Positions 18,512 to 42,051 of a stretch of DNA of 64,000 nucleotides are shown here, piece after piece. The notes under the pieces were generated by a model. The model saw only the letters and a list, made by a program, of their open reading frames with translations. It made no database searches and was not told where the DNA came from. The first letter of the stretch is position 1. The number at the start of each line of letters is the position of its first letter. The position numbers were made by a program, and so were the translations under genes. The stretch is taken from positions 1,689,279 through 1,753,278 of the forward strand of contig OY762937.1 of the NCBI GenBank assembly GCA_963667005.1. The letters are read 5' to 3'. This DNA is from Ignavibacteriaceae bacterium. Lineage in GTDB: Bacteria; Bacteroidota; Ignavibacteria; Ignavibacteriales; Ignavibacteriaceae.

Positions 18512-19834
18512 ATGAAAATTTTGATTACTTTTCTCTTCGTCATGGTAAGTGCAATTGCATTTGCAGCCCCAAATGATTCAACATTCGCAACAGAAAACTC
18601 TCCGATTGGATTTGCTTCTGTAAATGCCATGGGCGTTAATGGTACAACGGGTGGCGCAGGCGGCGATACGATTTATTTTACCAACGGGACAGACTTGTAC
18701 AATTTTCTGGATGACCGGAAGGATCCGAATTTTAATTTGAATATGCCTCCGAAAGTCTGTGTTATTGTCGGAACTCTGACTTCAACAAAAAAGCAGCTCG
18801 AGATTAAACAGACATATAATCTAACTTTCATCGGCAAAGGAACTGACGCCGCATTTGAAGGAACCGGACTGTTTGTAAAGCAAAGTTACAATATTATTAT
18901 TAGAAATATTCAGTTCAGAAATGCTCCTATTGACGGTGTAGCCATTCAATATCCTGAAGCACATCACGTATGGATTGATCATTGTTCGTTCACCGATTCA
19001 CCTGATATTGATACTGCCGATGCGCGGCATGACGGTGCATTGGATATTACTCACGGCTCGAGTTATGTAACAGTCTCATGGTGCTATTTTACCAATCACA
19101 CGAAAACCTGCTTACTGGGCCATTCTGATAGCAATGACGCTGAAGATCTTGATAAACTAAAAACCACTTATCATCACAACTGGTTTGATAACACCTCACA
19201 ACGCCATCCCAGAGTTCGTTATGCGGATTGCCATGTATACAATAACTACTATACAACAAAGGGCAGGATGTTGTATGGTGTCGCTTCCACTGCAAAAGCA
19301 AAGGTATTGCTTGAAGGGAATTACTTCGATGGCTTGAGTTTTCCTGCATATGTGGGATATGCTGAATCGCCAGCCGGTGATCTGCTTGAAAGAAATAATA
19401 TCTATAATAATAGCGGGATTCCGCAGAGTACCGGTATTGCATTTGAGCCAACTGCGTACTACCAATACAAGCTTACAGATCCGGCAGCCGTGCCATCCGT
19501 AGTTATGAACAATGCCGGAAGCGGCAAGTTGATTTCCGGTGTTGAAAAATCCGCCACTGTCCTAAAACCTGCTTCTTGTTCGCTTGAACAGAATTATCCG
19601 AATCCGTTTAACCCAACCACAAGAATAAACTATACGACTATTAAAACGGGTTTGGTGAAACTATCTATATATAATATGCTCGGGCAGGAGATCGCGGTTT
19701 TAGTCAATAAGATGCAGCCGCAAGGCGAATATTCGGTAGATTTCAATGCTTCAGGACTTCCCAGCGGCATGTATATATATAGATTAGCGATAGGTAATTT
19801 CTTTGAAACACGAAAAATGCTTTTGGTAAAATAA
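18512..19834 (+). CDS. Pectate lyase, family PL1, with T9SS C-terminal domain
   Basis: 440 aa with a signal peptide. Canonical PL1 blocks are present: HHVWIDHCSF, DGALDITHGSSYVTVSWCYF, LLGHSDSN, TYHHNWFDNTSQRHPRVRYADCHVYNNYY. The tail is EQNYPNPFNPTTRINY...GMYIYRL...RKMLLVK. Confidence 0.9.
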   Translation: MKILITFLFVMVSAIAFAAPNDSTFATENSPIGFASVNAMGVNGTTGGAGGDTIYFTNGTDLYNFLDDRKDPNFNLNMPPKVCVIVGTLTSTKKQLEIKQTYNLTFIGKGTDAAFEGTGLFVKQSYNIIIRNIQFRNAPIDGVAIQYPEAHHVWIDHCSFTDSPDIDTADARHDGALDITHGSSYVTVSWCYFTNHTKTCLLGHSDSNDAEDLDKLKTTYHHNWFDNTSQRHPRVRYADCHVYNNYYTTKGRMLYGVASTAKAKVLLEGNYFDGLSFPAYVGYAESPAGDLLERNNIYNNSGIPQSTGIAFEPTAYYQYKLTDPAAVPSVVMNNAGSGKLISGVEKSATVLKPASCSLEQNYPNPFNPTTRINYTTIKTGLVKLSIYNMLGQEIAVLVNKMQPQGEYSVDFNASGLPSGMYIYRLAIGNFFETRKMLLVK

Positions 19835-19871
19835 TCTTCGGCAACACGCAGGTGACTTTTTAGAATGTCTT

Positions 19872-19924
19872 AGAAAATGAGGTTCCATCAGCAGCATTCC
19901 TCATTTTCTTTTGTTACTGCCTGG
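19872..19924 (+). terminator. Rho-independent terminator
   Basis: Stem AGAAAATGAGG...CCTCATTTTCT followed by a T-rich run (TTTGTT), 38 nt after the stop. Confidence 0.65.
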
Positions 19925-20033
19925 TCAGGATTCAATCAATAAGCAGTAAGATTAATAATCTTTAATAATTCGATAAAAAAAGTAAAATTCTCCTTGACTC
20001 TTATGTAATTTATAAAGAATTTTTCATGGAAGT

Positions 20034-20055
20034 TAATCGTTTACTTAAACGGTTA
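20034..20055. promoter_or_regulatory. Candidate operator: TAATCGTTTA-ct-TAAACGGTTA
   Basis: 10-2-10 inverted repeat with one mismatch, 158 nt upstream of the ATG at 20213. It contains CTTAAACGGTTA (20044-20055), identical to the minus-strand core of the 18424-18447 site. Confidence 0.3.
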
Positions 20056-20212: not shown

Positions 20213-23200
20213 ATGAGAAAATGGTTCACTTTGGTTGCTGTTATTTGTGCTTTTACACTTACAGGAAGTGTTTACGCACAGTTCACAGCTACCTGGCCTC
20301 TTGATGCAAGTGCAGCAAAAGTGCCGACAGTTACTGGTGCACAGTCAACTACAGTTGCCGCACTACAAATGGTTCCCGGAACAAATTTTGCCAGCGGAAC
20401 CCACAATTCAGATGGTTTCCAATGTGCTTACACAACAACCTGGCCTACGACTCCAACCGACGGCCTTAATTTGGACTTTCCACTTTCACCTGATGCAAGT
20501 AGCCACATGACCATTACCGGTTTGACCATGACGGTAAAGATCTCCGGCAGCAGCAACAGCCAAGCTTTGTCGTTGGCTTATCAGGTTGACGGTGCGGGAG
20601 CTTGGACAACAATTGGAAGTGCACAATCCGTTCCGAGCGGTGGAACTTCAAATGTAACGTTCGGATCGCTTTCGCAATATTTTTCTAATGGGCATAGCTA
20701 TGTAGTCCGTTTGTACGTTTATGCAGGTGCCGCATCAATATCTGCAAGCAGAAAAGTATATATAAAGAACGTTGCGTTTACCGGAACAACAACGAATGCC
20801 AATGTTCCTTCAATATTTTTGTCAACTCTTTCTTTGCCGTCATTTGGAACACTAGTTGCCGGTTCAACATCCAGTTCCCAATCTTACACGGTAAGCGGCT
20901 CAAGACTTACAGACAATGTTGTAGTTACTGCACAAACACCGTTTCAGGTAAGTTTGGATAATACAACCTTTACGAGCAGTGTCACTTTAGCCAGAACCGA
21001 TACAACCAACCTTGCATCTACCACAGTATACGTGAGATTCAGCCCGGCAACAGCGGGTGGAAATCTCTCCGGTTCTATTACACATACTAGCGCGGGAGCC
21101 GGTACAAAAACCTTGGCGGTATCCGGTACTGCAATATCAGTTGAGCCGACTTTACAATCATCTCTGACCGTCGGCACCATTACCGGTACATCAGTTCAAC
21201 TTATCATCACTCCCGGTGACGGTAAAAACAGAATAATAACCGCGTGTGAAAACGCTGTTCCGACCTGGACACCGACCGATGGAAAAAGCTTGACCGGAGT
21301 TGATTCAAATTTCTCAGCCGCTACCAACCAAGGTTCGGCAACAAGAGTTGTATTCAACTTACCGGATTCTGTTTCAAGAAGCGTAACGGTTACCGGATTA
21401 CAGGTTGCTACTAAATATAATTTTGCAGTTTTTGAATATAATGGCAATAGCGGAACTGAAAATTATCTGCTTGCTTCACCGGGCTTTGCAGCTGCAACAA
21501 CATTAACCGTTCCGGGATTAAGCGTATCAACCGCTGCACTCTCATTCGGTAATGTTGTAATCGGTTCTGCTCCTGTTGAAAAATCTCTCACCGTTTCAGG
21601 TAAATTCCTTGAACCGGCTGATGGCTCTATCAATCTTACTTCAACTGGCAACTTCCAGATATCCACAACTTCGGGCAGCGGATTCAGCCAGTCATTAAGT
21701 ATTCCATACACCGGGGCAACGCTTACTACCATCCCTGTGTACGTTCAGTTCACGGTTGATTCAATAAAAAATTATTACGGTGCAATAACAGTCAGTGGCG
21801 GAAACGCGACAAATGTTTCTGTCAGCCTGAGTGGTTTTGGACGAGACAGTGCCTCAGTTATAGGAAAAGCAATTTATGTCGCTACCGATGGTAATGATGT
21901 TACCGGAACGGGTTCAATTGACAAACCGTATAAGAGTATTCAGGGTGCAGTTCTGAAACTTCAGGCCGGCATGACGCTAGTTCTTCGTGGAGGAACGTAT
22001 GTTAAAGATTCTATCATTGTCAGAGATAAGACTCTTTCAGACGTAACGATCAGAAGCTATCCTGGCGAAAGAGCCGTTATTGATGCTTCAACGAATGGTA
22101 CGGCAGGTATAGACGTTATAGTCTTTTACGGTAATAACAGCAAATTCTACGGCATTGATGTGAATACAGCACCGCATAACGGTATGTGGTTGCTCGGTAA
22201 CAATAATATTGTCGAATTCTGTCGTTTCTATAATTGCGGTGACTCCGGTTTCAAACTTGGCGCTCACCTTGAATCTATTTTCCCGGCAAATAATCAGATT
22301 ATCAACTGTGATGCATTCTGGAATTACGATACCAGAGGCAATGGCGGCAACGCGGATGGTTTTGCGGCTAAATGGAACATCGGAAGTGGTAACAGATTTG
22401 CGCACTGCCGCTCATGGGAAAACTCTGATGACGGATGGGATTTATGGCAGGCAGATAGTACTGTAGTTATGGATAGTTGCTGGTGCTGGCGTAACGGAAA
22501 TTATCATATTAAAAGTGCAGCAGGAAACGGTAACGGATTTAAGATCGGTGGTAAACCGGTTTGTGTACCTCATATCATGAGAAATTGCATTTCTTTTGAT
22601 AACGTTGGTTCCTCAGGCGGTAAAGGATTCGATCAGAATTCTAACTTAGCCGGACATACTATGTTGAACTGCCTGTCATGGGGCAACTCATATCTGGATT
22701 ATAACTTCTATGTCGCTTCCACAAATGGAACGTTGACATGTAAGAACTCTATTCAATATAAAGGAAAAACTTCCCCATACGTAAAATTTGTTGATGGCGT
22801 AGTTCAAAACAACTCATGGGCTGCTTTGAAATTCCAGTCCGGTTATACTTGGGCAGGTGTTACTGTTACCGATGCTGATTTTGTCAGCGTTGATACTTCG
22901 CTTGCCGGAAAACCGCGCAACGAAGATGGTTCAATACCTGTAACTGATTTATATCGCTTAAAAGCAACAAGTGCACTTATTGACAAAGGACAGGATGTTG
23001 GAATTCCGTTCTATGGCAGCGTTCCTGATATCGGACCGTTCGAATATGGATTAGTAAGTGCTGTAAAAGAGTATGAACCGATTGTCGGACCACGCTCATT
23101 CAAAGTTGAACAAAACTATCCCAACCCGTTCAACCCTTCAACGGTTATCAGCTATCAGATACCGAACAGTAGTTATGTAACTTTGAAAGTTTACAACATA

Positions 23201-23356
23201 CTCGGAAAAGAAGTAGCTACTTTGGTTAACGAAGAGAAAGCTTCCGGAATGTACCATGTAACATTTGATGCTTCGCATTTGCCGAGCGGTCTGTACATTT
23301 ACAGTGTTACAGCAGGTAAGTTCAGCCAGGTCAAAAAAATGATGTTAATCAAGTAA
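20213..23356 (+). CDS. Multidomain PL9-like (Pel9A-type beta-helix) pectate lyase, T9SS cargo [gene A]
   Basis: 1047 aa. Domain order:
- signal peptide
- unassigned ~170-aa N-terminal domain (FTATWPL...RKVYIKNVAFTG)
- Ig-like module (SLPSFGTLVAGSTSSSQSYTVSG...)
- Fn3-like module
- second Ig-like module
- beta-helix with N-cap YVATDGNDVTGTGSIDKPYKSIQGAV...RGGTY and motifs NADGFAAK-x-SDDGWDLW-x-GNGFKIGG
- T9SS tail. Confidence 0.8.
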   Translation: MRKWFTLVAVICAFTLTGSVYAQFTATWPLDASAAKVPTVTGAQSTTVAALQMVPGTNFASGTHNSDGFQCAYTTTWPTTPTDGLNLDFPLSPDASSHMTITGLTMTVKISGSSNSQALSLAYQVDGAGAWTTIGSAQSVPSGGTSNVTFGSLSQYFSNGHSYVVRLYVYAGAASISASRKVYIKNVAFTGTTTNANVPSIFLSTLSLPSFGTLVAGSTSSSQSYTVSGSRLTDNVVVTAQTPFQVSLDNTTFTSSVTLARTDTTNLASTTVYVRFSPATAGGNLSGSITHTSAGAGTKTLAVSGTAISVEPTLQSSLTVGTITGTSVQLIITPGDGKNRIITACENAVPTWTPTDGKSLTGVDSNFSAATNQGSATRVVFNLPDSVSRSVTVTGLQVATKYNFAVFEYNGNSGTENYLLASPGFAAATTLTVPGLSVSTAALSFGNVVIGSAPVEKSLTVSGKFLEPADGSINLTSTGNFQISTTSGSGFSQSLSIPYTGATLTTIPVYVQFTVDSIKNYYGAITVSGGNATNVSVSLSGFGRDSASVIGKAIYVATDGNDVTGTGSIDKPYKSIQGAVLKLQAGMTLVLRGGTYVKDSIIVRDKTLSDVTIRSYPGERAVIDASTNGTAGIDVIVFYGNNSKFYGIDVNTAPHNGMWLLGNNNIVEFCRFYNCGDSGFKLGAHLESIFPANNQIINCDAFWNYDTRGNGGNADGFAAKWNIGSGNRFAHCRSWENSDDGWDLWQADSTVVMDSCWCWRNGNYHIKSAAGNGNGFKIGGKPVCVPHIMRNCISFDNVGSSGGKGFDQNSNLAGHTMLNCLSWGNSYLDYNFYVASTNGTLTCKNSIQYKGKTSPYVKFVDGVVQNNSWAALKFQSGYTWAGVTVTDADFVSVDTSLAGKPRNEDGSIPVTDLYRLKATSALIDKGQDVGIPFYGSVPDIGPFEYGLVSAVKEYEPIVGPRSFKVEQNYPNPFNPSTVISYQIPNSSYVTLKVYNILGKEVATLVNEEKASGMYHVTFDASHLPSGLYIYSVTAGKFSQVKKMMLIK

Positions 23357-23377
23357 TACACATCGTGAAAATTAATA

Positions 23378-23412
23378 ATCCCCCGTGCGAGACGATCAAT
23401 CGGGGGGTTTTT
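23378..23412 (+). terminator. Rho-independent terminator
   Basis: CCCCCG...CGGGGG stem followed by TTTTT, 22 nt after the stop. Confidence 0.7.
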
Positions 23413-23518
23413 ATATTGAGAACAAATTCGATAGGATATGCCATAGACACTGATTGATACTGCTTCAACTTGATATTCGATCATCTGCCTTCAATCATAT
23501 CTGTAGCTTTAAATTTCA

Positions 23519-26500
23519 TTGGAGAAAAACGTGAACAAACTGAAATTATTATGCCTTGTTCTGATTCAGTTAATGCTATTCGGGTCTGCCGCACAGGCTC
23601 AATTAGTTGAGGGATTTGAAACAGGGATGCCTACAAGTGCACCTTCAACATTAACAAGCTATACATTAGGCTCGGGTACCTGGTCAATGTATAAATGCAG
23701 TCAGTCGGGTACTAAACACGCGGGTAGTTACGGATGCGCACTTGCTTCCAGTTCAACCGATGCTTCGTACATAATCTCACCGGCTCTCAATACGGTCGGT
23801 ACGATTACATATTGGGCAAAGTCGGGAAGTTCGTCAATTATTACCGTTTATATATCAATAAACGGGGGAGCCTGGACAACTGCGGGGTCATCTTCAACAA
23901 CATCTTCATTTGCATCAAACACAATCACACTTAATGAAACGAGCAACAGTGTACGGGTGAAATTCCAGAACGGACAAGGTACGTCAATGTATCTGGATGA
24001 TGTTACTATTACTCAGGTTACTGCCCCATATGTACGTATTTCTGCTACCAGCCTTCCATCCTTCGGTATGCTGGTTATGGGAAATTCCTCTTCATCATCC
24101 TCATACACAGTAGATGGAGCCAATTTAACAAGCAATTTATATGTTAATGCCCCAAACGGATTTCAGGTAAGTACCGATAATACTAATTTCTATTCTTCAC
24201 TTTCTTTGGCTCCGGCCAGTGGTGTTGTTGCAAGTACGACTATATACGCCCGCTTCTCACCGATAGCGGCGACAGGCGTAACTGCCGGTGCCATCACGAA
24301 TAAAAGTACAGGCGCTACGACGGTTGAGGTGAATGTTGACGGAAAAGCCATTGGCACAGAACCGGCTAAACAATCATCAATCGCAGTAAGTGAAGTAAGC
24401 GGCAATTCGCTTAAGCTAACACTATCGGGTGGTGATGGCGGTAACAGAATTATCATTGCCCGGGCGGGCAGTGCAGTCAACTGGACACCCGCAGATGGTA
24501 CTGACGGCACGGGTATCAATGCATCATTTGCAGCTGCAACTGATCAAGGCAACGGAAATAAAATAGTTTATTCCGGAACTTCTACGTCTGTAACCGTTAG
24601 TGGATTGACGGTAAACAGTCTTTATCATTTCGCGTCGTATGAGTATAACGGTGATGTGTCAAGTTCAGAGAATTACTTGCTTGCAAATCCGGGTCTGGCT
24701 AACGCCACAACACTTACTGTTCCGGGACTTTCAATTTCACCGGTCAGCATCGGATTCGGCAATGTGCTAAAAGATTCACTGTCGAAAGTTAAGTCATTTA
24801 CCATTTCCGGATTGTATCTAAATCCAGCATCCGGGAACATTAATGTTGCTGCAAACGGCGATTTTGAAGTATCCGCTTCCAGCAATGGAGTTTTTAGTAA
24901 GTCTGTTGATGTAGCCTATACATCTTCTGCTTTAACTGCAACCACTTTATATGCCCGTTTCCGGCCGTCTACCGTTGCCGATAATATTACCGGTACTTTA
25001 GTAGTCACTGGTGGGGGAGCTCCGGCTGATACAATAACCGTATACGGTTCAGGCAAGGATTTCTCGAGCTTTATAACCCGCGGTATTTTTTGCGCACCGG
25101 ACGGTAATGATGTAACTGCTGCAGGCACATACGATGATCCATTTTATTCATTGCACAAAGCAGTTGCAAAAGCTGTCCCGGGTGATACCATCTGGATGCA
25201 TGGCGGAACGTATTATTATAATTCTACGGTTATGCTGACAACAGCAGCCACAGCAGCTAAGCCGATTTCAATCATCGCGTATCCGGATGAGAAGCCGGTG
25301 ATGGATTGGTCAAACTGGAAACCGACAACAGAAGCAGTCCGTGGATCTGCACGTGGTATTAAAGTGGATAAATCGGCAAAATATTGGACGCTGAAAAAAC
25401 TTGAGATCTGTTACGCGCCTGATAACGGAGTAAAATGCGAAGGTTCGCATACGACATTTGACCAGTGCATTTTCCATCATAACGGCGATGGCGGTTTGCA
25501 GATTGGATTGGGCAAAGATTCATTATCGGCTAATCCGGATCCGGAAAATTATGCTTCCTACACACGCGTTCTCAACTGCGACGCTTTCGGTAATGCCGAT
25601 CCCGCAACTGATTATGAAAACGCTGATGGATTCTCCTGCAAACTGTACGCAGGCTATGATAATTATTTCTACGGCTGCCGCGCCTGGGGAAATTGCGATG
25701 ATGGCTGGGATTGTTATCAAACGAATTATCAGATAACAATTGAAAATTGCTGGGCTTTCCATAATGGAGATCCTTCGCAATGGGGATTCACTTCTTTTAA
25801 CGGTGATGGTAATGGTTTTAAACTCGGCGGCAACGGTGCACCGTGTCCTATTACTATTAAGAATTGTGTTGCCTTTAATTGCATCTATGGTGCAGTGTGC
25901 TGCTATAACGATAACAATAACGGTAGCGCTGTGACTGTTCTTAATTGCACAGGCTGGGATGGCGGAAAGATATTCAAGTTTCAATCCGAGCCGCACATCT
26001 TGAAAAACTGTGTGGGTTTTGATCCAAAATCAGGTGCGAAATTTGTAACTGATTTTTCCAGCACAGTAGTGTCTGTTAACAACTCATGGGATTTAGCAAT
26101 TGCCGCAGACTACAGCGACTTTATCAGCACCAGTGAGACTGATGCTCTTGCCCCTCGACAAGCAGACGGAAGTTTGCCCAATAACGGATTCGCAAGATTA
26201 AAACCAGGCAGTGCTCTTATCGACAAAGGTGTTGATGTGGGTATCGCATACTTTGGTTCTGCTCCTGATTTGGGCGCTTATGAATTTAATCCAACTGCGG
26301 TTAAAGATGGTAAAACACTCAAACCCGAGACTGTTTCACTAAGCCAGAATTATCCGAACCCGTTTAATCCGTCAACCGTTATCAAATATCAGGTTCCGGT
26401 TACGGGGAATGTCGTACTTAAAGTATATGACATGCTTGGTAAGGAGGTTGCTACACTTGTAAATGATGTAAAATCTGCGGGTGAGTATGAATACCGATTT

Positions 26501-26590
26501 AATGCGGCAAACCTCGCAAGTGGTTTGTACATCTATACTCTTAAATCAGGCAATACTATTCAAACAAAAAAAATGATGCTTCTTAAGTAA
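23519..26590 (+). CDS. Multidomain PL9-like pectate lyase, T9SS cargo [gene B]
   Basis: The track ORF starts at TTG 23519. The in-frame GTG at 23531, 6 nt after GGAG, is the more likely start. The N-terminal domain differs from gene A and looks choice-of-anchor-J/MAM-like (LVEGFETGMPTS...MYLDDVTITQV). It is followed by Ig-Fn3-Ig modules, a beta-helix (ENADGFSCKLYAG...CDDGWDCYQT...GDGNGFKLGG) and the T9SS tail. Confidence 0.8.
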   Translation: MEKNVNKLKLLCLVLIQLMLFGSAAQAQLVEGFETGMPTSAPSTLTSYTLGSGTWSMYKCSQSGTKHAGSYGCALASSSTDASYIISPALNTVGTITYWAKSGSSSIITVYISINGGAWTTAGSSSTTSSFASNTITLNETSNSVRVKFQNGQGTSMYLDDVTITQVTAPYVRISATSLPSFGMLVMGNSSSSSSYTVDGANLTSNLYVNAPNGFQVSTDNTNFYSSLSLAPASGVVASTTIYARFSPIAATGVTAGAITNKSTGATTVEVNVDGKAIGTEPAKQSSIAVSEVSGNSLKLTLSGGDGGNRIIIARAGSAVNWTPADGTDGTGINASFAAATDQGNGNKIVYSGTSTSVTVSGLTVNSLYHFASYEYNGDVSSSENYLLANPGLANATTLTVPGLSISPVSIGFGNVLKDSLSKVKSFTISGLYLNPASGNINVAANGDFEVSASSNGVFSKSVDVAYTSSALTATTLYARFRPSTVADNITGTLVVTGGGAPADTITVYGSGKDFSSFITRGIFCAPDGNDVTAAGTYDDPFYSLHKAVAKAVPGDTIWMHGGTYYYNSTVMLTTAATAAKPISIIAYPDEKPVMDWSNWKPTTEAVRGSARGIKVDKSAKYWTLKKLEICYAPDNGVKCEGSHTTFDQCIFHHNGDGGLQIGLGKDSLSANPDPENYASYTRVLNCDAFGNADPATDYENADGFSCKLYAGYDNYFYGCRAWGNCDDGWDCYQTNYQITIENCWAFHNGDPSQWGFTSFNGDGNGFKLGGNGAPCPITIKNCVAFNCIYGAVCCYNDNNNGSAVTVLNCTGWDGGKIFKFQSEPHILKNCVGFDPKSGAKFVTDFSSTVVSVNNSWDLAIAADYSDFISTSETDALAPRQADGSLPNNGFARLKPGSALIDKGVDVGIAYFGSAPDLGAYEFNPTAVKDGKTLKPETVSLSQNYPNPFNPSTVIKYQVPVTGNVVLKVYDMLGKEVATLVNDVKSAGEYEYRFNAANLASGLYIYTLKSGNTIQTKKMMLLK

Positions 26591-26611
26591 GCAAAATGAA
26601 ATTATATGCAG

Positions 26612-26646
26612 CCGGAGATCGTTCGTCAAGCGTTCTCCGGTTTGCT
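26612..26646 (+). terminator. Probable terminator hairpin
   Basis: CCGGAGA...TCTCCGG stem followed by TTTGCT. It lies inside the first 21 codons of the track ORF 26606, which argues for the later start. Confidence 0.5.
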
Positions 26647-29869: not shown

Positions 29870-29876
29870 TATTTAT

Positions 29877-29919
29877 ACGTTATCATCCTTTCCGGCAGAG
29901 GATGATAACGTGTTTGTTT
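29877..29919 (+). terminator. Rho-independent terminator
   Basis: 12-bp stem ACGTTATCATCC / GGATGATAACGT followed by GTTTGTTT. Confidence 0.65.
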
Positions 29920-33100: not shown

Positions 33101-35338
33101 ATGAGAAAATATATATTAATAATGGCTATTGCCTTGCTTTGCACACAAGCATGGGCTGAACGCCTTGTTTTTCAGGCCGAGAACGGAAAGCGTTCTTCCG
33201 GGACAGTAGATGTGGAATATGCCGGCTACACCGGAACTGGATACTTGAATACCGCTAATGCAACTGGTGAATATGTTGAATTTGAAGTTGGCGTTGCAAA
33301 TGAAGCAGATGATACACTGATATTTGTTTACGCACATAATAAGACAGATAACCGAACTGCATCCGTTACGGTAAATGGAGCCGTTGTTGTTAGTTCATTG
33401 GGTTTCCCCTCGACTGGTGCATGGACTACATGGTTACCTGTAACTGCTATTGTTCATTTAAAAGCCGGAGCAAACACAATTCGATTGACATCTCTTACTT
33501 CAGGTGGATTGGCGAATCTTGACAGGATGGAAGTCGGCGCGGCGGATGGAAGTTTTCAGTTTAAACTTACTACTTCGGTTAGTGGGCACGGAAATATCAC
33601 GGTAGATCCGGTAGGGCCTTACTATTCATTTGGCACATCGGTTAAACTTACTGCAGTACCGGATGCAAATACTACATTTACCGGATGGTCTGGAGATACT
33701 ACATCAACCGATAATCCGGTAACAATTACTATGTCAAAAGATAAGTCTCTGACAGCAATATTCTTCTCTGTTGTCGGCGGAACGAAGTATTGTTCTCCTG
33801 ACGGTGATGATAATAGCGGAGACGGCTCTTTTGCTAAACCGTATTATTCATTATCCAAAGCAGTAGAACTTGTCAGTCCGGGTGATACAATTTTTATGCG
33901 CGGCGGGACATATTATTATACTGCAACGGTACATCTCGCCGCAAAAGGAACACCCACGCAACGCTTTATTTTAATGGCATATCAGAGTGAGAAACCGGTT
34001 TTAAACTACTCAAAGTGGACTCCGGCAAATGAAACTGAGCGCGGTGCTGCAAGAGCTATGAAGGTAGATACTACAGCCGCATATTGGTATGTTAAGGGAT
34101 TGGAAATATGCTACGCGCCTGATAATGGCGTTAAATGCGAGGGCGACCATACAACATTCGACCAGTGCATATTTCATCATAACGGTGATGGCGGAATCCA
34201 GATCGGCTTGAATAAAGATTCGTTCTCTACAAATCCGAATCCCGATCATTGGGCTGCATACAATACTGTTCTTAACTGTGATTCCTATATGAACGCGGAT
34301 CCGGCTACAGATTATGAAAATGCTGATGGATTTGCATGCAAACTTTATGCAGGCAAGGGAAATTTCTTCTATGGCTGCCGTTCCTGGAATAATTGCGATG
34401 ATGGATGGGATTGTTATCAGACTGAATATGAAGTTCAATTTGAAAACTGCTGGGCATGGCATAACGGTGATCCGGCGTTGTGGGGATTCAGCTCGTTTAA
34501 TGGTGATGGAAATGGATTTAAACTCGGCGGTAATGGCACGTATTCGCCAATGACGCTTCGTCGCTGTGTTGCGTTGAATTGCAACTGGGGTGCTTTAGGT
34601 GGATTCGCTTACAATGACAACATAGCACCTATCACTTTGCTAAACTGCACTGCAATTCATTGCGGCAGAAGTTATAACATGCAGCAGACAGCCGCTAATA
34701 TTATGACCAACTGTGCTGACTGGGGTGCCGACCGGCCTGCTCCTAAAGATATTTCTTCAAGCTCTATTTGTACTAACTGTACATGGACGCTGGGAATAAC
34801 GGTTGATACGACAATGTTTGTGACAGTTGCCGAATCAGCAGCGATTGAGTCGCGTCAGGCTGATGGCGCACTACCGACAAGATTTGCAAAATTGGTTTCC
34901 GGAAGCAAACTAATTGATAAAGGAACTTCTGTTGGAATTCCATTTTTAGGTGCTGCTCCTGACCTTGGTGCATATGAATTCGGTCAGGCAGTTCCAACGG
35001 TGCCGGATTCGATTTTCCATATTCCTAATTCGGGTGTTTCTGGAATTGAGATTCAACAAAATCTAACTCCGAATACATTAACGGTAGTGCGGAACTATCC
35101 GAACCCGTTTAATCCAGCAACAAACATTACTTTTAGTGTTGCACAAAAAGGACACGCGACATTAAAGATCTATGACATGGTTGGCCGTGAAGTAGCAGAA
35201 TTATTCAATAATGAAGCTAATCCCAACAGCAAATACACGGTAAATTTTAACGCAGGCAATCTATCGAGTGGTATCTATTTCAGTGTGGTACACTGCGGAA
35301 ACCAGCATGCGGTTAGCAAAATGATATTAATGAAGTAA
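33101..35338 (+). CDS. CBM6/35-like + PL9-like pectate lyase, T9SS cargo [gene E]
   Basis: 745 aa. Domain order:
- signal peptide
- CBM6/35-like module (LVFQAENGKRSSG...TGAWTTW...NLDRMEV)
- InlB-B-repeat-like module (LTAVPDANTTFTGWSGD)
- beta-helix near-identical in long stretches to gene C
- T9SS tail. Confidence 0.8.
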   Translation: MRKYILIMAIALLCTQAWAERLVFQAENGKRSSGTVDVEYAGYTGTGYLNTANATGEYVEFEVGVANEADDTLIFVYAHNKTDNRTASVTVNGAVVVSSLGFPSTGAWTTWLPVTAIVHLKAGANTIRLTSLTSGGLANLDRMEVGAADGSFQFKLTTSVSGHGNITVDPVGPYYSFGTSVKLTAVPDANTTFTGWSGDTTSTDNPVTITMSKDKSLTAIFFSVVGGTKYCSPDGDDNSGDGSFAKPYYSLSKAVELVSPGDTIFMRGGTYYYTATVHLAAKGTPTQRFILMAYQSEKPVLNYSKWTPANETERGAARAMKVDTTAAYWYVKGLEICYAPDNGVKCEGDHTTFDQCIFHHNGDGGIQIGLNKDSFSTNPNPDHWAAYNTVLNCDSYMNADPATDYENADGFACKLYAGKGNFFYGCRSWNNCDDGWDCYQTEYEVQFENCWAWHNGDPALWGFSSFNGDGNGFKLGGNGTYSPMTLRRCVALNCNWGALGGFAYNDNIAPITLLNCTAIHCGRSYNMQQTAANIMTNCADWGADRPAPKDISSSSICTNCTWTLGITVDTTMFVTVAESAAIESRQADGALPTRFAKLVSGSKLIDKGTSVGIPFLGAAPDLGAYEFGQAVPTVPDSIFHIPNSGVSGIEIQQNLTPNTLTVVRNYPNPFNPATNITFSVAQKGHATLKIYDMVGREVAELFNNEANPNSKYTVNFNAGNLSSGIYFSVVHCGNQHAVSKMILMK

Positions 35339-35347
35339 GGATTTATT

Positions 35348-36859
35348 ATGTATAAATGCTCGTTTCTTGTAGTTGCATTTCTTTCAAGCTTCTTGCTTGG
35401 TCAAGCATTATATGTATCACCGACCGGAAGTGATTCAAACCCCGGTACGATTGATTCAGCGCTTGCAACTCCGCAGGCAGCCATGGCAAAGTTATCATCC
35501 GACGGTTCAGGCGCGATGATATGGATTCGCGGCGGTACGTATAAGCTCAGTTCTCAGTTAAAAACGAGTAAGAATGGCGCTGCTGGTAACCTTAATAAAA
35601 TTTGGGCATATCCCGGAGAGAAACCAATATTTGATTTTACGGGATTAAATGATCGCGGCGTCTATTTTAGTAAAAGCTATTGGCACATGAGGGGAATTGA
35701 AGAATGCAACGCAGGCAGTAACGGAATTTGTTTTTCCGGTTGTGGAAATAATATTTTAGAAGGATGTGTCGCGCATGACAACGGTCTGGAAGGTATTAAG
35801 ATCACCGGGTCAAGCAGTAACCTTACTCACGATAATTTGATCCTTAATTGCGATTCATACCGTAACTATGATGCCGCAGGTAATGGCGAAAATGCAGACG
35901 GTTTTGCGGCGAAAACCGGGACCGGCTCGGGGAATGTTTTTAGAGGATGCCGTGCCTGGTATAACTCGGATGACGGCTGGGATTTTTACGAAAATAGCAC
36001 CGGGGGATTGACATTGGATAGCTGCTGGGCCTTCTGGAATGGCGTTAACTTGTGGGGCAATGGTTCTTGGGCGGGTGACGGCGACGGATTTAAGCTCGGT
36101 GGAGCAAAAACGACTTCCGAACATAAATTAACAAATTGTATAGCATTTGACAATATTTTGAGCGGCTTTGCACAAAATCATGCTTACGCAGGACAAACGA
36201 TGATTAACTGCACCAGTTACCGCAATTCGCAAAACACCTTTTCATTTTATGAGGCCGCAACAGCAGGCACTCTCTTGCATCATGTTTTGAAAAACTGTGT
36301 TTCATATGGCGGTAAAGGTGTTACGCTTTACACTTCAACAGAACAAGTTACGAATAGCTGGCAGACTTTAACTTTGACAGATGCTGATTTCGAGAGCCTT
36401 GATACAGCTGGCGTTACAGGTCCGCGTAATGCCGATTATAGCTTACCTAAACTGAAATTCTTACATCTTGCAAAAGGCAGTCAGGCTATCGACAAAGGTA
36501 CAAATGTCGGAATAGCGTTTACCGGATCTGCTCCTGATATGGGCGCTTATGAATATTCCGGGACTACCGGAATTGGCAATGATCTTGCTCATGCAAAAGG
36601 GTTTGTCTTAGGCCAGAACTATCCGAATCCTTTCAATCCGTCAACCATGATTCGATATCAGGTCCCGGTAAGTGGAAATGTTGAATTGAAAGTGTTTGAT
36701 GTGCTGGGTAAAGAAGTTGCAGAGCTGGTGAACGGAATTCAATCAGCAGGCACATATAGCTGCGTATTCAATGCAGCAGCATTGCCGAGCGGATTATATT
36801 TCTATACTCTTAAATCAGGAAGTAATGTTGAGACTAAAAAAATGCTTCTTCTTAAGTAA
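35348..36859 (+). CDS. Minimal PL9-like pectate lyase + T9SS tail [gene F]
   Basis: 503 aa. N-cap LYVSPTGSDSNPGT...IRGGTY, then ENADGFAAK, SDDGWDFYE, GDGDGFKLGG and the T9SS tail. It starts 9 nt after gene E ends. Confidence 0.8.
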   Translation: MYKCSFLVVAFLSSFLLGQALYVSPTGSDSNPGTIDSALATPQAAMAKLSSDGSGAMIWIRGGTYKLSSQLKTSKNGAAGNLNKIWAYPGEKPIFDFTGLNDRGVYFSKSYWHMRGIEECNAGSNGICFSGCGNNILEGCVAHDNGLEGIKITGSSSNLTHDNLILNCDSYRNYDAAGNGENADGFAAKTGTGSGNVFRGCRAWYNSDDGWDFYENSTGGLTLDSCWAFWNGVNLWGNGSWAGDGDGFKLGGAKTTSEHKLTNCIAFDNILSGFAQNHAYAGQTMINCTSYRNSQNTFSFYEAATAGTLLHHVLKNCVSYGGKGVTLYTSTEQVTNSWQTLTLTDADFESLDTAGVTGPRNADYSLPKLKFLHLAKGSQAIDKGTNVGIAFTGSAPDMGAYEYSGTTGIGNDLAHAKGFVLGQNYPNPFNPSTMIRYQVPVSGNVELKVFDVLGKEVAELVNGIQSAGTYSCVFNAAALPSGLYFYTLKSGSNVETKKMLLLK

Positions 36860-36882
36860 TTTGAGCAGATTCGCATTATAAC

Positions 36883-38529
36883 ATGAAGATATACAAAAAC
36901 ATACTTGCATTTTGCGCTTTGCTTAGTCTGCAAACTCTGCATGCACAACAGCCGGCATTTCCGGGAGCGGAAGGCGCAGGAATGTATACCGTAGGCGGCC
37001 GCTATGGTGATGTTTATCATGTTACCAATTTAAATAATTCAGGCAGCGGGTCACTTCGTGATGGGGTTGAAACCGCGCCTGATAACGGTCGAACAATAAT
37101 TTTTGATGTTTCAGGCAACATTTCACTTTCTTCCTCACTAAAGATTACCAAGTCTCACATTACTATAGCAGGACAAACTGCTCCGGGTAAAGGTATTTGT
37201 CTGAAGGATGGCCGCTTTATAGTCGCGGGAAATGATATTATTATCAGGCATATGCGCTTTCGCCCAAGCCAATCAGGCGGTGATGGCGATGCTCTGAATA
37301 TATCAGGCACGAATCTTATTATTGATCATTGCAGTGCTTCGTGGTCATCGGATGAAGTTATGAGCACTGCCGAGAATGCAAATAACAATATTACACTGCA
37401 GTGGAATTTGATATACGAAGGCCTGAATATTTCTTATCACTATGAAAACGGTGTGCTGCTCGACCACTCAATGGGTTCCCTGCTTTCCACCTCGATTGAC
37501 GGTGGAATGATATCTGTGCATCACAATTTATATGCACACAACAGAACCAGGAATCCCAAACCGACGGTAAGCGCTGAAAACATTGCCTTAAATTTCGATT
37601 TTAGCAATAACATTATATACGATTGGGGAGATAAAGCAGGGTACAGTTCGGATGACTCGCTGCACTTTGTTAATATGAATTACGTAAACAATTATCTTAT
37701 AGCCGGCTCATCAACAAAAGCAAGTAAGTGCACGACTGCATTCAACGGTATTGCATCCAGCACACATATATTCCAGAGCGGCAATAAAATAGACGGTAAC
37801 CGTGATAAAGTTCTTAATGGTACGAATATCGGATGGGGAATGTTTGAGGGTGATTACAAGCCGATGAATACTGCCTATGTATTACCCGGCATCCGGACGG
37901 AATCAGCCGATTCAGCATATAATGATGTATTGCAGTCCGCCGGAGCGTTCTGGTGGAACCGGGATTCGGCAGATACACGGGTGATAGCAGATGTGCAAAA
38001 TGAAACAGGCAGTATTATTAATTTGCAGTCGGACGTCGGTGGATGGGAAAATTTGCCAGTACTATCCCGGCAGGTAACCTGGGATACCGATAAAGACGGT
38101 ATGCCGGATACATGGGAGGTGGATCAAGGACTGAATCCGAATAGTGACGGGGATGCATCATTACTGTGTGCTGACGGATATACGAATCTCGAGCATTATA
38201 TCAACGGGATTATTCCAGCTGTAACGACTGATGTATCTTCTTCAGTAAATAACCGGTTACAAATTTCGAAATTTGTGCTACACAATAATTATCCAAATCC
38301 TTGTAATCCCGGTACTACAATTTCTTATTCCATTCCACAGCAAGGCCGTGTGCGGATTCGTGTCTTCAATACATTGGGTAATGAAGTTTCATCTGTATGT
38401 GATGAAATACAAGATGCCGGTCTGCACAATACATATATCGACGCATCACACTTATCAAGCGGAGTATATTTCTATCAGGTTGAGTACAATAATAACCGGC
38501 AGTCAAAAAAGATGGTGCTGCTGAAATGA
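36883..38529 (+). CDS. PL1-like pectate lyase with acidic Ca-binding-type insert, T9SS cargo [gene G]
   Basis: 548 aa with FPGAEGAGMYTVGGRYGDVYHVTNLNNSGSGSLR, TIAGQTAPGKGI, DGDALNISG...IIDHCSASWSSDE and HNRTRNPKP. A TSP3-like stretch (DTDKDGMPDTWEVDQGLNPNSDGD) and the T9SS tail follow. Confidence 0.75.
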   Translation: MKIYKNILAFCALLSLQTLHAQQPAFPGAEGAGMYTVGGRYGDVYHVTNLNNSGSGSLRDGVETAPDNGRTIIFDVSGNISLSSSLKITKSHITIAGQTAPGKGICLKDGRFIVAGNDIIIRHMRFRPSQSGGDGDALNISGTNLIIDHCSASWSSDEVMSTAENANNNITLQWNLIYEGLNISYHYENGVLLDHSMGSLLSTSIDGGMISVHHNLYAHNRTRNPKPTVSAENIALNFDFSNNIIYDWGDKAGYSSDDSLHFVNMNYVNNYLIAGSSTKASKCTTAFNGIASSTHIFQSGNKIDGNRDKVLNGTNIGWGMFEGDYKPMNTAYVLPGIRTESADSAYNDVLQSAGAFWWNRDSADTRVIADVQNETGSIINLQSDVGGWENLPVLSRQVTWDTDKDGMPDTWEVDQGLNPNSDGDASLLCADGYTNLEHYINGIIPAVTTDVSSSVNNRLQISKFVLHNNYPNPCNPGTTISYSIPQQGRVRIRVFNTLGNEVSSVCDEIQDAGLHNTYIDASHLSSGVYFYQVEYNNNRQSKKMVLLK

Positions 38530-40082
38530 TAAAAAACGGAGTTACAAAATTTTCTCTTTTGTTGTTAGGCTGCATTTTAACAATAACAGTACATGGGCAG
38601 GATGTTAATAATCCGGCTCAGGTTTTACAAAGAGTAGGAAGCTACATCATATCTCAAACTTCCGATCAGGTTATAGACAAATCTACAAGCTCTGTAATTT
38701 CAAATCCTGATACGACAAGCATCAATAAAAACGCGGTATATAAAAGTGCATTCAATGACTGGGTATATCCCAACGGGGTAATGCTTTATGGTATGATGCG
38801 GGCAGGTGAAGTTGATACTACCTATCGAAGCTTTTTAAATTACGGCATCAAAAACTTCAGCGTAATATTTAAAAATTATTCGTATTTCAAAAAATTATAT
38901 GCCGCTTATAAGGTTACTTCGGGGAATAATTGCTATAAACTATATCGTATGAGTTCGTTAGATGATTGCGGAGCAATGGGCGCTGCTTTGATTGAAGCAT
39001 ACGACTTACAGGGAAGAACCAATACTGATTGGCAGCCCACAATAAACGCGATTGCAAATTATATTTCGACAGGACAGATTCGGCTGTCCGATGGAACTCT
39101 TTACCGGGTAGGTCCATCATCACAAACGATTTGGGGTGATGATTTGTACATGAGCGTTCCTTGCATAGTACGCATGGGAAGAATAACCGGACAGCAAAAG
39201 TACTACGATGATGCGGCACGACAGGTTACTCAGTTTTATAAGAGACTTCTACAAACCGATCTGGGCATTACTCACCATGGTTACTATGCTGATTCTGTTA
39301 AACCTTCAAAGGCTTACTGGGGCAGGGCGAACGGATGGATGATGGTTGCAGCTGTTGAAGCTTATAATGCCATTCCTGTGACGCAAGTTAACCGGGACAG
39401 TATTTTGATGTTCATCAAAGCACACATCAACGGAGTATTGAAGTATCAGGATTCAACAACAGGTCTCTGGCACAACCTTCTTGACAAGAGCGACTCATTT
39501 CTTGAGACATCCTGTACGGCAATGTTCACATACTCAATTGCGAGAGCAATAAACGAGGGATGGCTTGATACATCCTATGCACAGTATGCCCGTAAAGGTT
39601 GGGCAGGAGTAGCTTCCAAGGTAACAAGCGACGGTCAGGTCAAAGGAACTTGTCAGGGCACAAGTATGTCGGAAGACCTGACATACTATTACAACCGTAC
39701 CTCGCCGGATAATGACCCCCATGCATTTGGTCCGGTGCTTCTTGCTGCATCTGAGATGGTACGCTTACAGAAAAAATTGAACGTAACGGATATAAAGGAT
39801 TTCAAAAAAGATGAAGGATTCCTGTTGGAACAAAATTTTCCGAATCCTTTTAATCCATCTACAAAACTTACATATCATGTTCATCAATCGGGGCACGTGA
39901 ATATGGTGCTGTATGATTCTATCGGTAACGAAGTATCCAAACTTGTCAACGAGTACAAATCTCCCGGAGATTACACGTATTCGTTGTCAGGTGAGAAATT
40001 ACATCTTTCGAGTGGAGTATACGTAGTACGACTTCAATCGGAAAAGCAGGTTCAGGCAATTAAAATAGCTCTTATTAAGTAA
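38526..40082 (+). CDS. Unsaturated rhamnogalacturonyl hydrolase-like (GH105/GH88 fold), T9SS cargo [gene H]
   Basis: 518 aa. ATGA overlap with gene G. Motifs IWGDDLYMSVP and YWGRANGWMMVA are typical of the YteR/YesR-type (alpha/alpha)6 hydrolases. T9SS tail present. Confidence 0.75.
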   Translation: MIKNGVTKFSLLLLGCILTITVHGQDVNNPAQVLQRVGSYIISQTSDQVIDKSTSSVISNPDTTSINKNAVYKSAFNDWVYPNGVMLYGMMRAGEVDTTYRSFLNYGIKNFSVIFKNYSYFKKLYAAYKVTSGNNCYKLYRMSSLDDCGAMGAALIEAYDLQGRTNTDWQPTINAIANYISTGQIRLSDGTLYRVGPSSQTIWGDDLYMSVPCIVRMGRITGQQKYYDDAARQVTQFYKRLLQTDLGITHHGYYADSVKPSKAYWGRANGWMMVAAVEAYNAIPVTQVNRDSILMFIKAHINGVLKYQDSTTGLWHNLLDKSDSFLETSCTAMFTYSIARAINEGWLDTSYAQYARKGWAGVASKVTSDGQVKGTCQGTSMSEDLTYYYNRTSPDNDPHAFGPVLLAASEMVRLQKKLNVTDIKDFKKDEGFLLEQNFPNPFNPSTKLTYHVHQSGHVNMVLYDSIGNEVSKLVNEYKSPGDYTYSLSGEKLHLSSGVYVVRLQSEKQVQAIKIALIK

Positions 40083-40251
40083 CAAATACTGCCGGTATAC
40101 GGTGGTTGTGCGGTGTTAGGCTCGAAGAGATAGGATGAGATAGAGTATTAACAAGCAACAGTTGCTTTTATTGCAGATGCATCGGTATGATCGTTAATGT
40201 CGGATACCCATGCAATATTAAACAACTAATTTAATTCAATAGGGAATCTCT

Positions 40252-40509
40252 ATGATACAAAACTATCCGAATCCGTTTAACCCATCAACGGTAATCAGCT
40301 ATCGTTTGTCAAATGATAGCCATGTGATGTTGAAAATTTTTGACGCGCTCGGCAGGGAAATTGCTACCTTGTTAAATGAAAACAAGATGAAAGGCGAGCA
40401 TGAATTTCATCTTGACGCAGGAAATTATAACCTGTCAAGCGGCATATATTTCGTGGAAATGACAGCGGGAACAAATGTTTCAACCATCAAATTAGTATTG
40501 GCAAAATAG
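40252..40509 (+). pseudogene. Stand-alone T9SS C-terminal sorting domain (orphan CTD; gene remnant or mini-ORF)
   Basis: The 85-aa ORF is nothing but a CTD (MIQNYPNPFNPSTVISY...SGIYFVEMTAGTNVSTIKLVLAK). An in-frame TAG sits 9 nt upstream of its ATG. There is no signal peptide or passenger domain. Its stop abuts the next ATG (TAGATG). Confidence 0.6.
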
Positions 40510-42051
40510 ATGAACCTGTTCATCCGCATCATAGTGATTAGTGTTCTGCTGTGGAATGTTGTTAATTCAGCTCAGACAGTTGATAGAACAACCCTTAAAG
40601 GGAAGGTTATGTGCGGGTATCAGGGGTGGTTCGCGGTGCCGTCAGATAGTATAAACCGGGGGTGGTACCATTACCAAAAGTCGGGAGTATTTCAACCGGG
40701 GAAATGCTCGGTTGATCTCTGGCCGGATGTCTCCGAATTGGATGCTGACGAACGCTATGCAACTTCTTTCGTCCTTTCTGATAATTCAACTGCGTATGTC
40801 TATAGTTCACAAAACAGAAAGTCCGTTGTTCGTCATTTCAAGTGGATGCGTGACTATGGAATAGATGGTGTATTTATACAACGGTTTGTCACTGAAGTTA
40901 ACGGGGCAGGGTTACAGCAGTTCAACAACGTACTTGCCGCGTGCCGTATCGGGGCAAATCAATATGGACGCTCATTTGCAATCATGTACGATCTCTCGGG
41001 TATGCAGGCAAATCAGATGTCTTTAGTGATGAATGACTGGAAGACACTTGTTGATAAGCAAAAAATCACCAAAGACAGTGCATATATCTATCATAACGGA
41101 AAACCGGTTGTAGCTATATGGGGCATCGGATTTAACGACAGTAGAAAGTATACGCTGCCTGAGTGCCAAACCTTGATAGATTTTTTCAAAAAAGATACGA
41201 CGTACGGCGGATGTACGGTCATGGTCGGAGTGCCTACATACTGGCAGATAATGGATAAAGATGCAGTAAAAGATACTGCGCTTTTAACAACGATAAAGAA
41301 AGCCGACATTGTCAGTCCCTGGTTTGTTGGACGGCCTGCTGTTCCTGATGATGCGACGAACCTTGTAAAGAACGTACTTGCGCCTAATATAACATGGTGC
41401 AAGCAATATAATCTTGAATACATGCCTGTTGTTTTCCCGGGATTCAGCTGGTACAATATGAACGCCGGAACGCTGAACCAAATACCGCGCCTCAAAGGGA
41501 AATTTTTATGGCGGCAGTACTATGAATATATCAAGGCCGGCTCGACAATGCTGTATCAGGCGATGTTTGATGAAATGGATGAAGCAACTGCAATTTTCAA
41601 ATGCACAAATAACACGCCGACGGGTGCAAGTCTTTTTGTAACATATGAAGGATTGCCATCCGACTATTATTTAAAAATGGTAGGTGCCGGTTCTAAGATG
41701 CTGCGCGGTGAAATTGCTTTGAAAGATACCATTCCCGTATCAGTCACTGATATTCATGACGCAAACATGGGAAAAGCAAACGCATTTCAGCTTGGACAGA
41801 ATTTCCCGAATCCATGTAATCCATCAACGGTAATTCGCTATACGGTTCCGCACAGTGAATTTGTAACGATAAAATTATATGATGTAACCGGTAACGAAAT
41901 TGCAACATTGGTTCAGGGCGAGAAACCAGAAGGGATGTATGATCTTACCTTAGATCAGAATATCATGGGGAAACTATCTTCCGGTGTATACTTCTATAGA
42001 ATGACAGCCGGAGATTTTACCGGTACAAAGAAACTGCTTTATCTGAAGTAA
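40510..42051 (+). CDS. Putative glycoside hydrolase (GH71/GH99-like TIM barrel; family unverified), T9SS cargo [gene I]
   Basis: 513 aa with a signal peptide. The N-terminal GKVMCGYQGWFAVPSDSINRGWYHY...DLWPDVSE pattern is recalled from GH99/GH71-like uncharacterised hydrolases. T9SS tail present. Confidence 0.55.
   Translation: MNLFIRIIVISVLLWNVVNSAQTVDRTTLKGKVMCGYQGWFAVPSDSINRGWYHYQKSGVFQPGKCSVDLWPDVSELDADERYATSFVLSDNSTAYVYSSQNRKSVVRHFKWMRDYGIDGVFIQRFVTEVNGAGLQQFNNVLAACRIGANQYGRSFAIMYDLSGMQANQMSLVMNDWKTLVDKQKITKDSAYIYHNGKPVVAIWGIGFNDSRKYTLPECQTLIDFFKKDTTYGGCTVMVGVPTYWQIMDKDAVKDTALLTTIKKADIVSPWFVGRPAVPDDATNLVKNVLAPNITWCKQYNLEYMPVVFPGFSWYNMNAGTLNQIPRLKGKFLWRQYYEYIKAGSTMLYQAMFDEMDEATAIFKCTNNTPTGASLFVTYEGLPSDYYLKMVGAGSKMLRGEIALKDTIPVSVTDIHDANMGKANAFQLGQNFPNPCNPSTVIRYTVPHSEFVTIKLYDVTGNEIATLVQGEKPEGMYDLTLDQNIMGKLSSGVYFYRMTAGDFTGTKKLLYLK

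Follow-up and report, generated by a model that had tools for sequence, protein, structure and literature searches.

Predicted extracellular pectin depolymerization by a SusC/SusD-less, type IX secretion-tagged gene cluster in an Ignavibacteriaceae bacterium, with a conserved sorting-domain-only gene beside it

How might a bacterium attack pectin when every enzyme of the cluster carries a secretion tag and no Sus-like uptake genes accompany them? This question is raised by a run of genes on contig OY762937.1 (GenBank assembly GCA_963667005.1), a metagenome-assembled genome (MAG) of an Ignavibacteriaceae bacterium of soil/sludge type. The stretch analyzed, here called the window, spans 64,000 nucleotides (64 kb; positions 1,689,279 to 1,753,278 of the contig), and all coordinates below refer to it unless another contig is named. 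Its open reading frame (ORF) list contains ten plus-strand enzyme ORFs at 18512-42051, labeled A to J in order, and an 85-amino-acid ORF at 40252-40509, labeled T, which lies between I and J. The coordinates and single-strand arrangement described in the original prediction, an annotation made from the sequence alone that had treated all eleven ORFs as one pectin degradation island, were thereby reproduced; minus-strand ORFs of at least 100 amino acids within 18512-42051 all lie antisense inside the long plus-strand genes. The island is flanked by leuS, serS and pta upstream and by an AI-2E-family transporter gene and proS downstream. With a probability of roughly three in four, we conclude that genes A to I (18512-40082) form a 22-kb cluster for extracellular pectin depolymerization exported through a secretion system of type IX (T9SS), and that T and J constitute a separate module.

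The enzyme families named in the original prediction (PL1, five PL9, CE8, GH105 and a GH99-like hydrolase) were upheld by hidden Markov model, PDB and structure searches. Gene A (18512-19834, on the plus strand like every gene described here; 440 amino acids) encodes a signal peptide, a PL1 pectate lyase domain (PF00544, 147.8 bits) and a type A T9SS C-terminal sorting domain (CTD). The PL9 beta-helix model PF22842 scored above its cut-off in B (20213-23356; 1,047 amino acids), C (23519-26590; 1,023 amino acids, TTG start), D (26669-29869; 1,066 amino acids counted from ATG 26669), F (33101-35338; 745 amino acids) and G (35348-36859; 503 amino acids), and a PelN-like model covered approximately 400 residues; in gene B the two models span residues 547 to 944. 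Proteins B, C and D carry an N-terminal module (N-module) ahead of the lyase domain and a CTD behind it, the N-module of B being preceded by a signal peptide, while F combines a CBM6/35 domain and an InlB-B-repeat-like domain with PL9 and a CTD, and G is a minimal PL9 domain with a CTD. The best PL9 match was obtained with G, of which residues 19 to 402, the full domain, aligned with the pectate lyase Pel9A (PDB 1ru4; 4.9e-61); the second-best structural relative was a rhamnogalacturonan lyase (5olq; 1.9e-30). The motifs ADGF, DDGWD and GFK(L/I)GG are invariant across the five paralogues and aligned with the same motifs of Pel9A, in which we take D209, D233, D234 and D237 to be the Ca2+ ligands and Lys273 the catalytic base, a numbering that reportedly goes back to Jenkins et al. 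in 2004. With the spacing checked by hand, these motifs give B, C, D, F and G the complete set of four aspartates that bind Ca2+, together with the lysine base, and five PL9 paralogues with intact catalytic residues are thus on offer for enzymology.

The remaining assignments within A to I vary in firmness. Gene H (36883-38529; 548 amino acids, with a CTD) matched a pectate lyase structure (PDB 9buj, 2.9e-29) and the NCBIfam PelZ model (2.3e-43, under its equivalog cut-off), and the Pfam search found no catalytic domain in it and no match to PF00544; its product is best described as a PL1-like (PelZ-like) lyase and not as a proven PL1 member. Gene E (29962-33057; 1,031 amino acids) encodes the N-module, a divergent CE8 pectinesterase-like beta-helix and a CTD. 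It reached 60.6 bits against PF01095 (cut-off, 27), yet only profile positions 2 to 170 of 298 were covered. Its beta-helix aligned with the pectinesterases PDB 3uw0 and 1gq8 and retains both catalytic aspartates (in DT and D-x-x-x-x-G), while the region of the catalytic Arg is not part of the alignment. Gene I (38526-40082; 518 amino acids, with a CTD), the start of which overlaps H by 4 nucleotides (nt), matched PF07470 (GH88/GH105) at 245 bits; its nearest solved relatives all belong to GH105 (3k11 at 3.4e-67, 3qwt, and YteR, 1nc5, at 5.4e-26) and GH88 entries scored much worse, consistent with a GH105-type unsaturated (rhamno)galacturonyl hydrolase. No enzyme inside the island has two catalytic domains.

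All eleven proteins matched PF18962 (Por_Secre_tail), the GH105 protein I at 26.0 bits against a Pfam cut-off of 27, and all ten enzymes passed the TIGR04183 cut-off of 23 with 31.2 to 47 bits (31.2 for I; gene A gave 45.8 bits, and 38.9 bits with PF18962). The enzyme CTDs end 1 to 5 residues before the stop codon. The original prediction had placed a sorting tail and a signal peptide on every ORF; the former was borne out throughout, and the latter for the ten enzymes, in which a basic N-terminus is followed by a hydrophobic 12-mer with a Kyte-Doolittle value of 1.97 to 2.94, and not for T, which reached only 0.92. For gene D the mechanical ORF begins at ATG 26606. Its true start is likely ATG 26669, as had been assumed, because the signal-peptide-like N-terminus (MRKFIPVFCF...) begins there and because a stable hairpin (26608-26645) lies between the two ATG codons. 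No PorK/L/M/N, SprA/Sov or PorU/V gene was found in the 64-kb window; reviews place Ignavibacteriota among the phyla with T9SS genes (PMC11285876). It was also observed that, in all enzymes but A and F (eight of ten), a Gln stands right behind the likely signal peptidase site, as in VYA|QF, TFA|QY and LHA|QQ, which fits the "Q-rule" reported to be high for Ignavibacterium album (PMC5837995).

The island is conserved. It is collinear with a locus in another Ignavibacteriaceae MAG (OY759785.1, referred to as L001) at 78 to 80% DNA identity, and all island genes are under purifying selection relative to L001, with ratios of nonsynonymous to synonymous substitution rates (dN/dS) of 0.03 to 0.06 at a dS above 1. 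Clusters of pectin genes that all encode CTDs recur, with no SusC/SusD pair or TonB-dependent receptor in their flanks, at L002, at L003 to L005 and on a contig from ENA. The ENA contig carries F-, D-, E- and I-like genes followed by T, J and an AI-2E transporter gene; L003 (JGI Ga0497343_000064) carries two CE8 and three PL9 genes and a decayed GH105 gene, then T and J; and L002 has only GH105, E-like and G-like genes, located beside chemoreceptor genes.

What the sequences show directly are gene structure, domain families, catalytic residues, conservation and synteny, from which secretion, substrate, extracellular location and operon structure are inferred. If the sorting domains operate as predicted, the tagged enzymes would work extracellularly, as released or surface-tethered proteins. 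Judged by family membership, a division of labor can be proposed in which the CE8 enzyme (E) would de-esterify homogalacturonan, the PL1 and PL1-like enzymes (A and H) and the five PL9 enzymes (B, C, D, F and G) would cut the backbone by Ca2+-dependent beta-elimination, and the GH105 enzyme (I) would take the unsaturated uronate off the products, extracellularly instead of in the periplasm or cytoplasm. The N-module of B, C, D and E and the CBM6/35 domain of F would probably serve as spacer or binding modules. With GH105 predicted to act extracellularly, this layout suggests that the organisms release public-good sugars. Uptake, uronate catabolism and regulation would be encoded outside the island: domain annotation found no SusC/SusD pair, TonB-dependent receptor, transporter, kdu/uxa gene or dedicated regulator within it, as the original prediction had stated. 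The SusC/SusD pair typical of Sus-like polysaccharide utilization loci (PULs) was found neither in the 64-kb window nor in the flanks of the related loci, and no TonB-dependent receptor, sugar transporter or kdu/uxa uronate catabolic gene was found across the window.

The lack of uptake and uronate catabolic genes, in the window as in the flanks of related loci, would also suit a battery that clears pectin off plant cell walls so as to expose cellulose or hemicellulose and leaves the galacturonate unused, as has been proposed for Fibrobacter succinogenes and Melioribacter roseus. M. roseus encodes secreted pectate lyases and pectin methylesterases and failed to grow on pectin, for which its authors give this same explanation (PMC3534657). 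An exported GH105, able to complete the breakdown of unsaturated oligomers to monomers, is difficult to account for if nothing uses what it yields, and we regard the stripping of pectin for access alone as unlikely.

The pectin-related genes of the window are not limited to the island, as shown by an incomplete gene at 59209-64000 that encodes at least 1,597 amino acids and runs past the window end. Its product, a giant secreted esterase, begins with a signal peptide and carries, besides a CE12-like rhamnogalacturonan acetylesterase domain (PDB 1deo, 8.3e-13; 2o14, 5.7e-27), Ig-like modules that share homology with the N-module of the island and the beginning of a CE8 domain. Directly upstream of it, and outside the island, lie two PF06580 histidine kinase genes and a LytTR response regulator gene (56087-59005). 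The statement that there is no dedicated regulator consequently stands for the island itself, in which no regulator gene was found, and is qualified by this LytTR two-component system, a candidate pectin regulator 14 to 17 kb downstream.

With regard to transcription, the intergenic gaps of 43, 9, 23 and -4 nt given by the original prediction are correct for E to F, F to G, G to H and H to I (starts at 29962, 33101, 35348, 36883 and 38526). Stable hairpins follow the four genes before this block. That after A (19872-19909) has a perfect 11-bp stem and a U-rich tail (-13.3 kcal/mol) and is overall no better than shuffled sequence (z, -1.0), while that after B (23373-23413) is terminator-like, being GC rich with a U-run (-17.5 kcal/mol; z, -2.0). 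The hairpin after C (26608-26645, upstream of the likely D start; -21.1 kcal/mol; z, -5.2) and the 17-bp hairpin after D (29875-29913; -22.2 kcal/mol; z, -5.9) are far stabler than shuffled sequence. These hairpins and the tight spacing are compatible with the transcription units originally drawn, and E to I probably form one operon. A promoter consensus scan gave 45 matches against 44.8 in shuffled sequence and thus no excess. The regions preceding A to E, T, the gene at 7413, the gene at 59209 and the kinase operon were compared, and no k-mer of at least 9 nt was common to three or more of them; no upstream motif was thus found to link the island with the LytTR system or the giant esterase gene. 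The Rfam and tRNA scan of the window returned a tRNA-His at 55691 as its sole result.

It is also conceivable that the target is a non-plant acidic polysaccharide, for example the uronate-rich exopolymers of bacteria or algae in sludge or sediment. PL9 includes activities other than pectate lyase (rhamnogalacturonan and other lyases), and 5olq is the second-best structural relative of G. The CE8 domain of E is divergent: QDT is replaced by SDT and the N-terminal half of the Pfam profile alone was matched. The GH99-like protein J is not of a pectin family and occurs in mannan-type contexts elsewhere, and the contigs recovered as related come from MAGs or assembled metagenomes. Set against this, PL1, PL9, CE8 and GH105 together with the nearby CE12 make up the classical toolkit for homogalacturonan and rhamnogalacturonan I (RG-I), and the best PL9 match is the pectate lyase Pel9A; a non-plant substrate is accordingly considered improbable. 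The breadth of PL9 and the divergence of E nevertheless weigh against pectin depolymerization by secreted enzymes, as do four further points: signal peptides were called by a heuristic (basic residues and a hydrophobic 12-mer) and not by SignalP, we know of no experimental demonstration of T9SS CTD function in Ignavibacteriota, the hairpin after A does not stand out from shuffled sequence, and M. roseus, with similar enzymes, did not grow on pectin.

Extracellular pectin depolymerization by A to I was compared with known systems. The island shares the families PL1, PL9, CE8 and GH105, and with the 59209 gene also CE12, with the pectin PULs of Bacteroides thetaiotaomicron, which target homogalacturonan and RG-I and were reportedly described by Luis et al. 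in 2018. Those loci center on SusC/SusD and hybrid two-component regulators, and their enzymes are mostly lipoproteins or periplasmic, GH105 being periplasmic; Bacteroides, to our knowledge, lacks a T9SS. The pectinases of Dickeya and Pectobacterium (PelL/Pel9A, PelN, PelX, PelZ and PemA) likewise form a battery of redundant secreted PL1 and PL9 lyases with CE8, and the nearest characterized homologues of the island lyases are found here (Pel9A [1ru4], PelN and PelZ). They differ in relying on type II export and a dispersed KdgR regulon, with the oligomers finished intracellularly.

Closer parallels exist among T9SS-bearing organisms. M. roseus belongs to the same phylum, Ignavibacteriota, and was described by Kadnikov et al. 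(2013) as bearing a Por sorting domain on most of its carbohydrate-active enzymes (CAZymes) with a CBM; it resembles the island host in these tagged CAZymes, pectate lyases and pectin methylesterases among them, and in the signal peptides on those pectin enzymes, and differs in having a SusCDE starch operon, while neither a contiguous all-CTD pectin island nor a leaderless CTD gene was described for it (PMC3534657). Naas et al. (2018) reported PUL-less genomes with T9SS-CTD CAZymes, some in operon-like clusters, and cited Cytophaga hutchinsonii as a parallel (PMC5831590). The clusters of "Candidatus Paraporphyromonas polyenzymogenes" and C. hutchinsonii are similar to the island in their operon-like arrangement of multimodular CAZymes with TIGR04183 CTDs and no SusC/SusD (PMC5831590), in the fusion of "hypothetical" modules to catalytic domains and in the extracellular attack on plant polymers. 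They differ in that they are directed at cellulose and hemicellulose and occur in Bacteroidota, whereas the island is directed at pectin and occurs in Ignavibacteriota. The original prediction had presented the locus as a departure from the Bacteroides PUL paradigm. The SusC/SusD-less, all-CTD layout is real, and it has precedents in these three organisms; clusters of T9SS CAZymes without SusC/SusD are known, and what is added here is a pectin-directed case in Ignavibacteriaceae and not a break with the paradigm. The cluster is a clear, conserved example for pectin, in Ignavibacteriota, of a strategy in which everything is secreted by T9SS and no Sus system is used, in a phylum common in sludge, sediments and hot springs.

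An all-versus-all comparison of the island proteins revealed that B, C, D and E have in common an N-terminal module of approximately 520 residues. No Pfam model and no PDB sequence matched it. Its AlphaFold2 (AF2) model (pLDDT, 82.7) contains four serial beta-sandwich domains (jelly-roll/MAM-like, Ig-like, FN3-like and Ig-like), and Foldseek matched it best to MAM-Ig-FN3 ectodomains and other beads-on-a-string proteins. From this predicted resemblance to ectodomains the module is taken to be noncatalytic, with a putative spacer or binding role. Portions of it are fused with PL1, CE8 and PL9 in other organisms; the homologue search was word indexed, and its 26 partial matches missed obvious orthologues and under-sample the distribution. 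As an uncharacterized module recurrent on pectin enzymes, it is a candidate new binding module. In the same comparison D and F shared 75% identity over PL9 and CTD, D and E shared 58% over the N-module, and the tail of E was closest to that of G (72%). Such mosaic identities among paralogues indicate that tandem duplication and the shuffling of domains enlarged the array.

The smallest gene of the island poses a question of its own. Gene T (40252-40509) encodes a leaderless, 85-amino-acid, type A T9SS CTD-like domain and nothing else, matching PF18962 at 43.1 bits over profile positions 2 to 74 of 75; a profile combining T with its orthologues and with comparable short CTD proteins matched the solved CTD 8glj_D. 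The CTD begins right at the start codon (MIQNYPNPFNPST), and an in-frame stop codon lies four codons upstream. The original prediction had called T an orphan tail, by implication a leftover, and a pseudogene fragment left after an enzyme gene had lost its catalytic portion by deletion would indeed lack a signal peptide and have a stop codon just upstream. Such deletions occur: in L003 a 93-amino-acid ORF (9385-9666 of that contig) joins residues 8 to 72 of GH105 to its CTD and is followed by a frameshift, a gene in decay. This GH105 remnant shows how tail-only fragments arise through internal deletion. One standalone tail from a different genome overlaps the gene upstream at its end and resembles a frameshift split, and a second case is equivocal. 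The substitution pattern of T is different from that of a fragment in decay. T differs from its L001 orthologue by 32 synonymous and 2 nonsynonymous changes (dN/dS 0.009) and from that of L003 by 39.5 and 7.5 (dN/dS 0.014), with dN/dS between 0.009 and 0.02 in three lineages; 29 of 35 differences from L001 and 37 of 47 from L003 fall on third codon positions, for which the probability under neutrality is about 1e-18. Identity is 86% in the T ORF and 61% in the spacer upstream of it. Seven orthologue clusters were identified (71 to 96% identity), all of 85 amino acids except one of 89 and all with the start codon kept, and a Shine-Dalgarno-like AGGGA, AGGAG or AAGGAG is located 8 to 12 nt before T, as for most island genes. 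The idea of T as a present-day pseudogene is thus largely refuted and is given very little credence. Instead, T appears to be a conserved, translated gene under strong purifying selection, which probably began as a deletion remnant and was later retained as a protein.

The position of T relative to J is also maintained. T directly precedes J. The ATG of J comes immediately after the stop codon of T (gap, 0 nt) in the window, where that codon is TAG, and in L001, where it is TAA; the ENA contig has 13 nt between the two genes and L003 has 102 nt. The pairing persists even beside a decayed GH105 gene; in L008, a more distant relative, T is absent upstream of J. The dS above 1 indicates that T has been kept upstream of J over a long time, and the two genes are probably translationally coupled. 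As it has no signal peptide, T is outside the known T9SS route. Tentatively, and with more doubt than confidence, T may be a functional leaderless CTD-only T9SS accessory factor tied to the secretion of J or of CTD cargo generally, and it might serve CTD cargo as a decoy, chaperone or sensor or be a partner that J needs; were this so, it would act from the cytoplasmic side or reach the periplasm by an unfamiliar route, and it would represent a new kind of T9SS accessory factor derived from a gene remnant. T is a cheaply testable oddity that asks whether sorting domains can have an independent life.

Only one CTD protein known to act in regulation was found as a precedent, PorA of Porphyromonas gingivalis, a small protein of 246 amino acids that reaches the cell surface (PMC7712824). 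T is similar in being a small protein whose CTD would matter beyond carrying enzyme cargo. PorA possesses, beyond its CTD, a FimH-like N-domain and a signal peptide, whereas T is leaderless, CTD only and 85 amino acids long, and these extra parts rule out PorA as a model for T. A general class of standalone CTD genes is not claimed: two more short CTD ORFs were looked at, of which the one that overlaps an M23 peptidase gene at its end is probably a frameshift split and the equivocal one sits between intact genes. An exhaustive sequence search with T matched 233,035 representative proteins, a number that reflects the huge size of the CTD family and not the frequency of standalone tails. Among the matches were very large proteins (P0268, P0269 and P0338; 2,194 to 4,622 amino acids) with 12 to 13 internal CTD-like copies; the fold therefore also serves as a generic repeat and not solely as a terminal signal.

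Gene J (40510-42051; 513 amino acids) encodes a GH99-like (beta/alpha)8 hydrolase with a CTD, and its ATG abuts the stop codon of T. At 23.5 bits against PF16317 it stays under the cut-off of 33, outside GH99 as defined by sequence, and a single-sequence search matched no PDB chain. Its AF2 model (pLDDT, 85.7) gave Foldseek TM scores of 0.77 to 0.80 to the GH99 endo-alpha-mannosidases BtGH99, BxGH99 and MANEA. A profile of the J family matched BtGH99 at 5.7e-6, with FDE-x-DEGT aligned to FNEWHEGT and the E-x-x-E motif kept, and NCBI names its homologues "glycoside hydrolase family 71/99-like." J is predicted to work like a GH99-type hydrolase, though sequence membership fails. Its one tie to the pectin island, in which the original prediction had included it, is adjacency, and its relatives sit in non-pectin contexts: one homologue (68% identity) is located beside a CTD-bearing GDSL esterase gene, distant from pectin genes, and another (67% identity) on an Ignavibacteria contig (L010; JGI Ga0393737_000092). 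The L010 cluster encodes PorV, a CBM9-CTD protein, GH99, an SSF symporter, a GntR/LacI-type regulator, an MFS transporter, a ROK kinase and GH92, a gene company that points towards mannose-type glycans for this J homologue. T and J (40252-42051) are thus regarded as a conserved module that is separate from, and next to, the pectin island.

Within L010 the PorV homologue (2575-3615 of that contig) adjoins the CTD-bearing CBM9 and GH99-like proteins, and T9SS components therefore occur beside CTD cargo in Ignavibacteria. The same contig provides a T9SS CAZyme cluster that has inner-membrane uptake and regulator genes and yet no SusC/SusD. Among the tails of the island, the CTD of J (41797-42051) is the fastest evolving, with a dN/dS of 0.15, 81% amino acid identity to L001 and an NFPNPCNP variant, while the slowest is T, immediately before it (dN/dS 0.009). 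One further tagged protein is encoded in the window, at 7413-10658 on the plus strand; its 1,081 amino acids include a signal-peptide-like N-terminus and a T9SS CTD, with no other recognizable domain between them.

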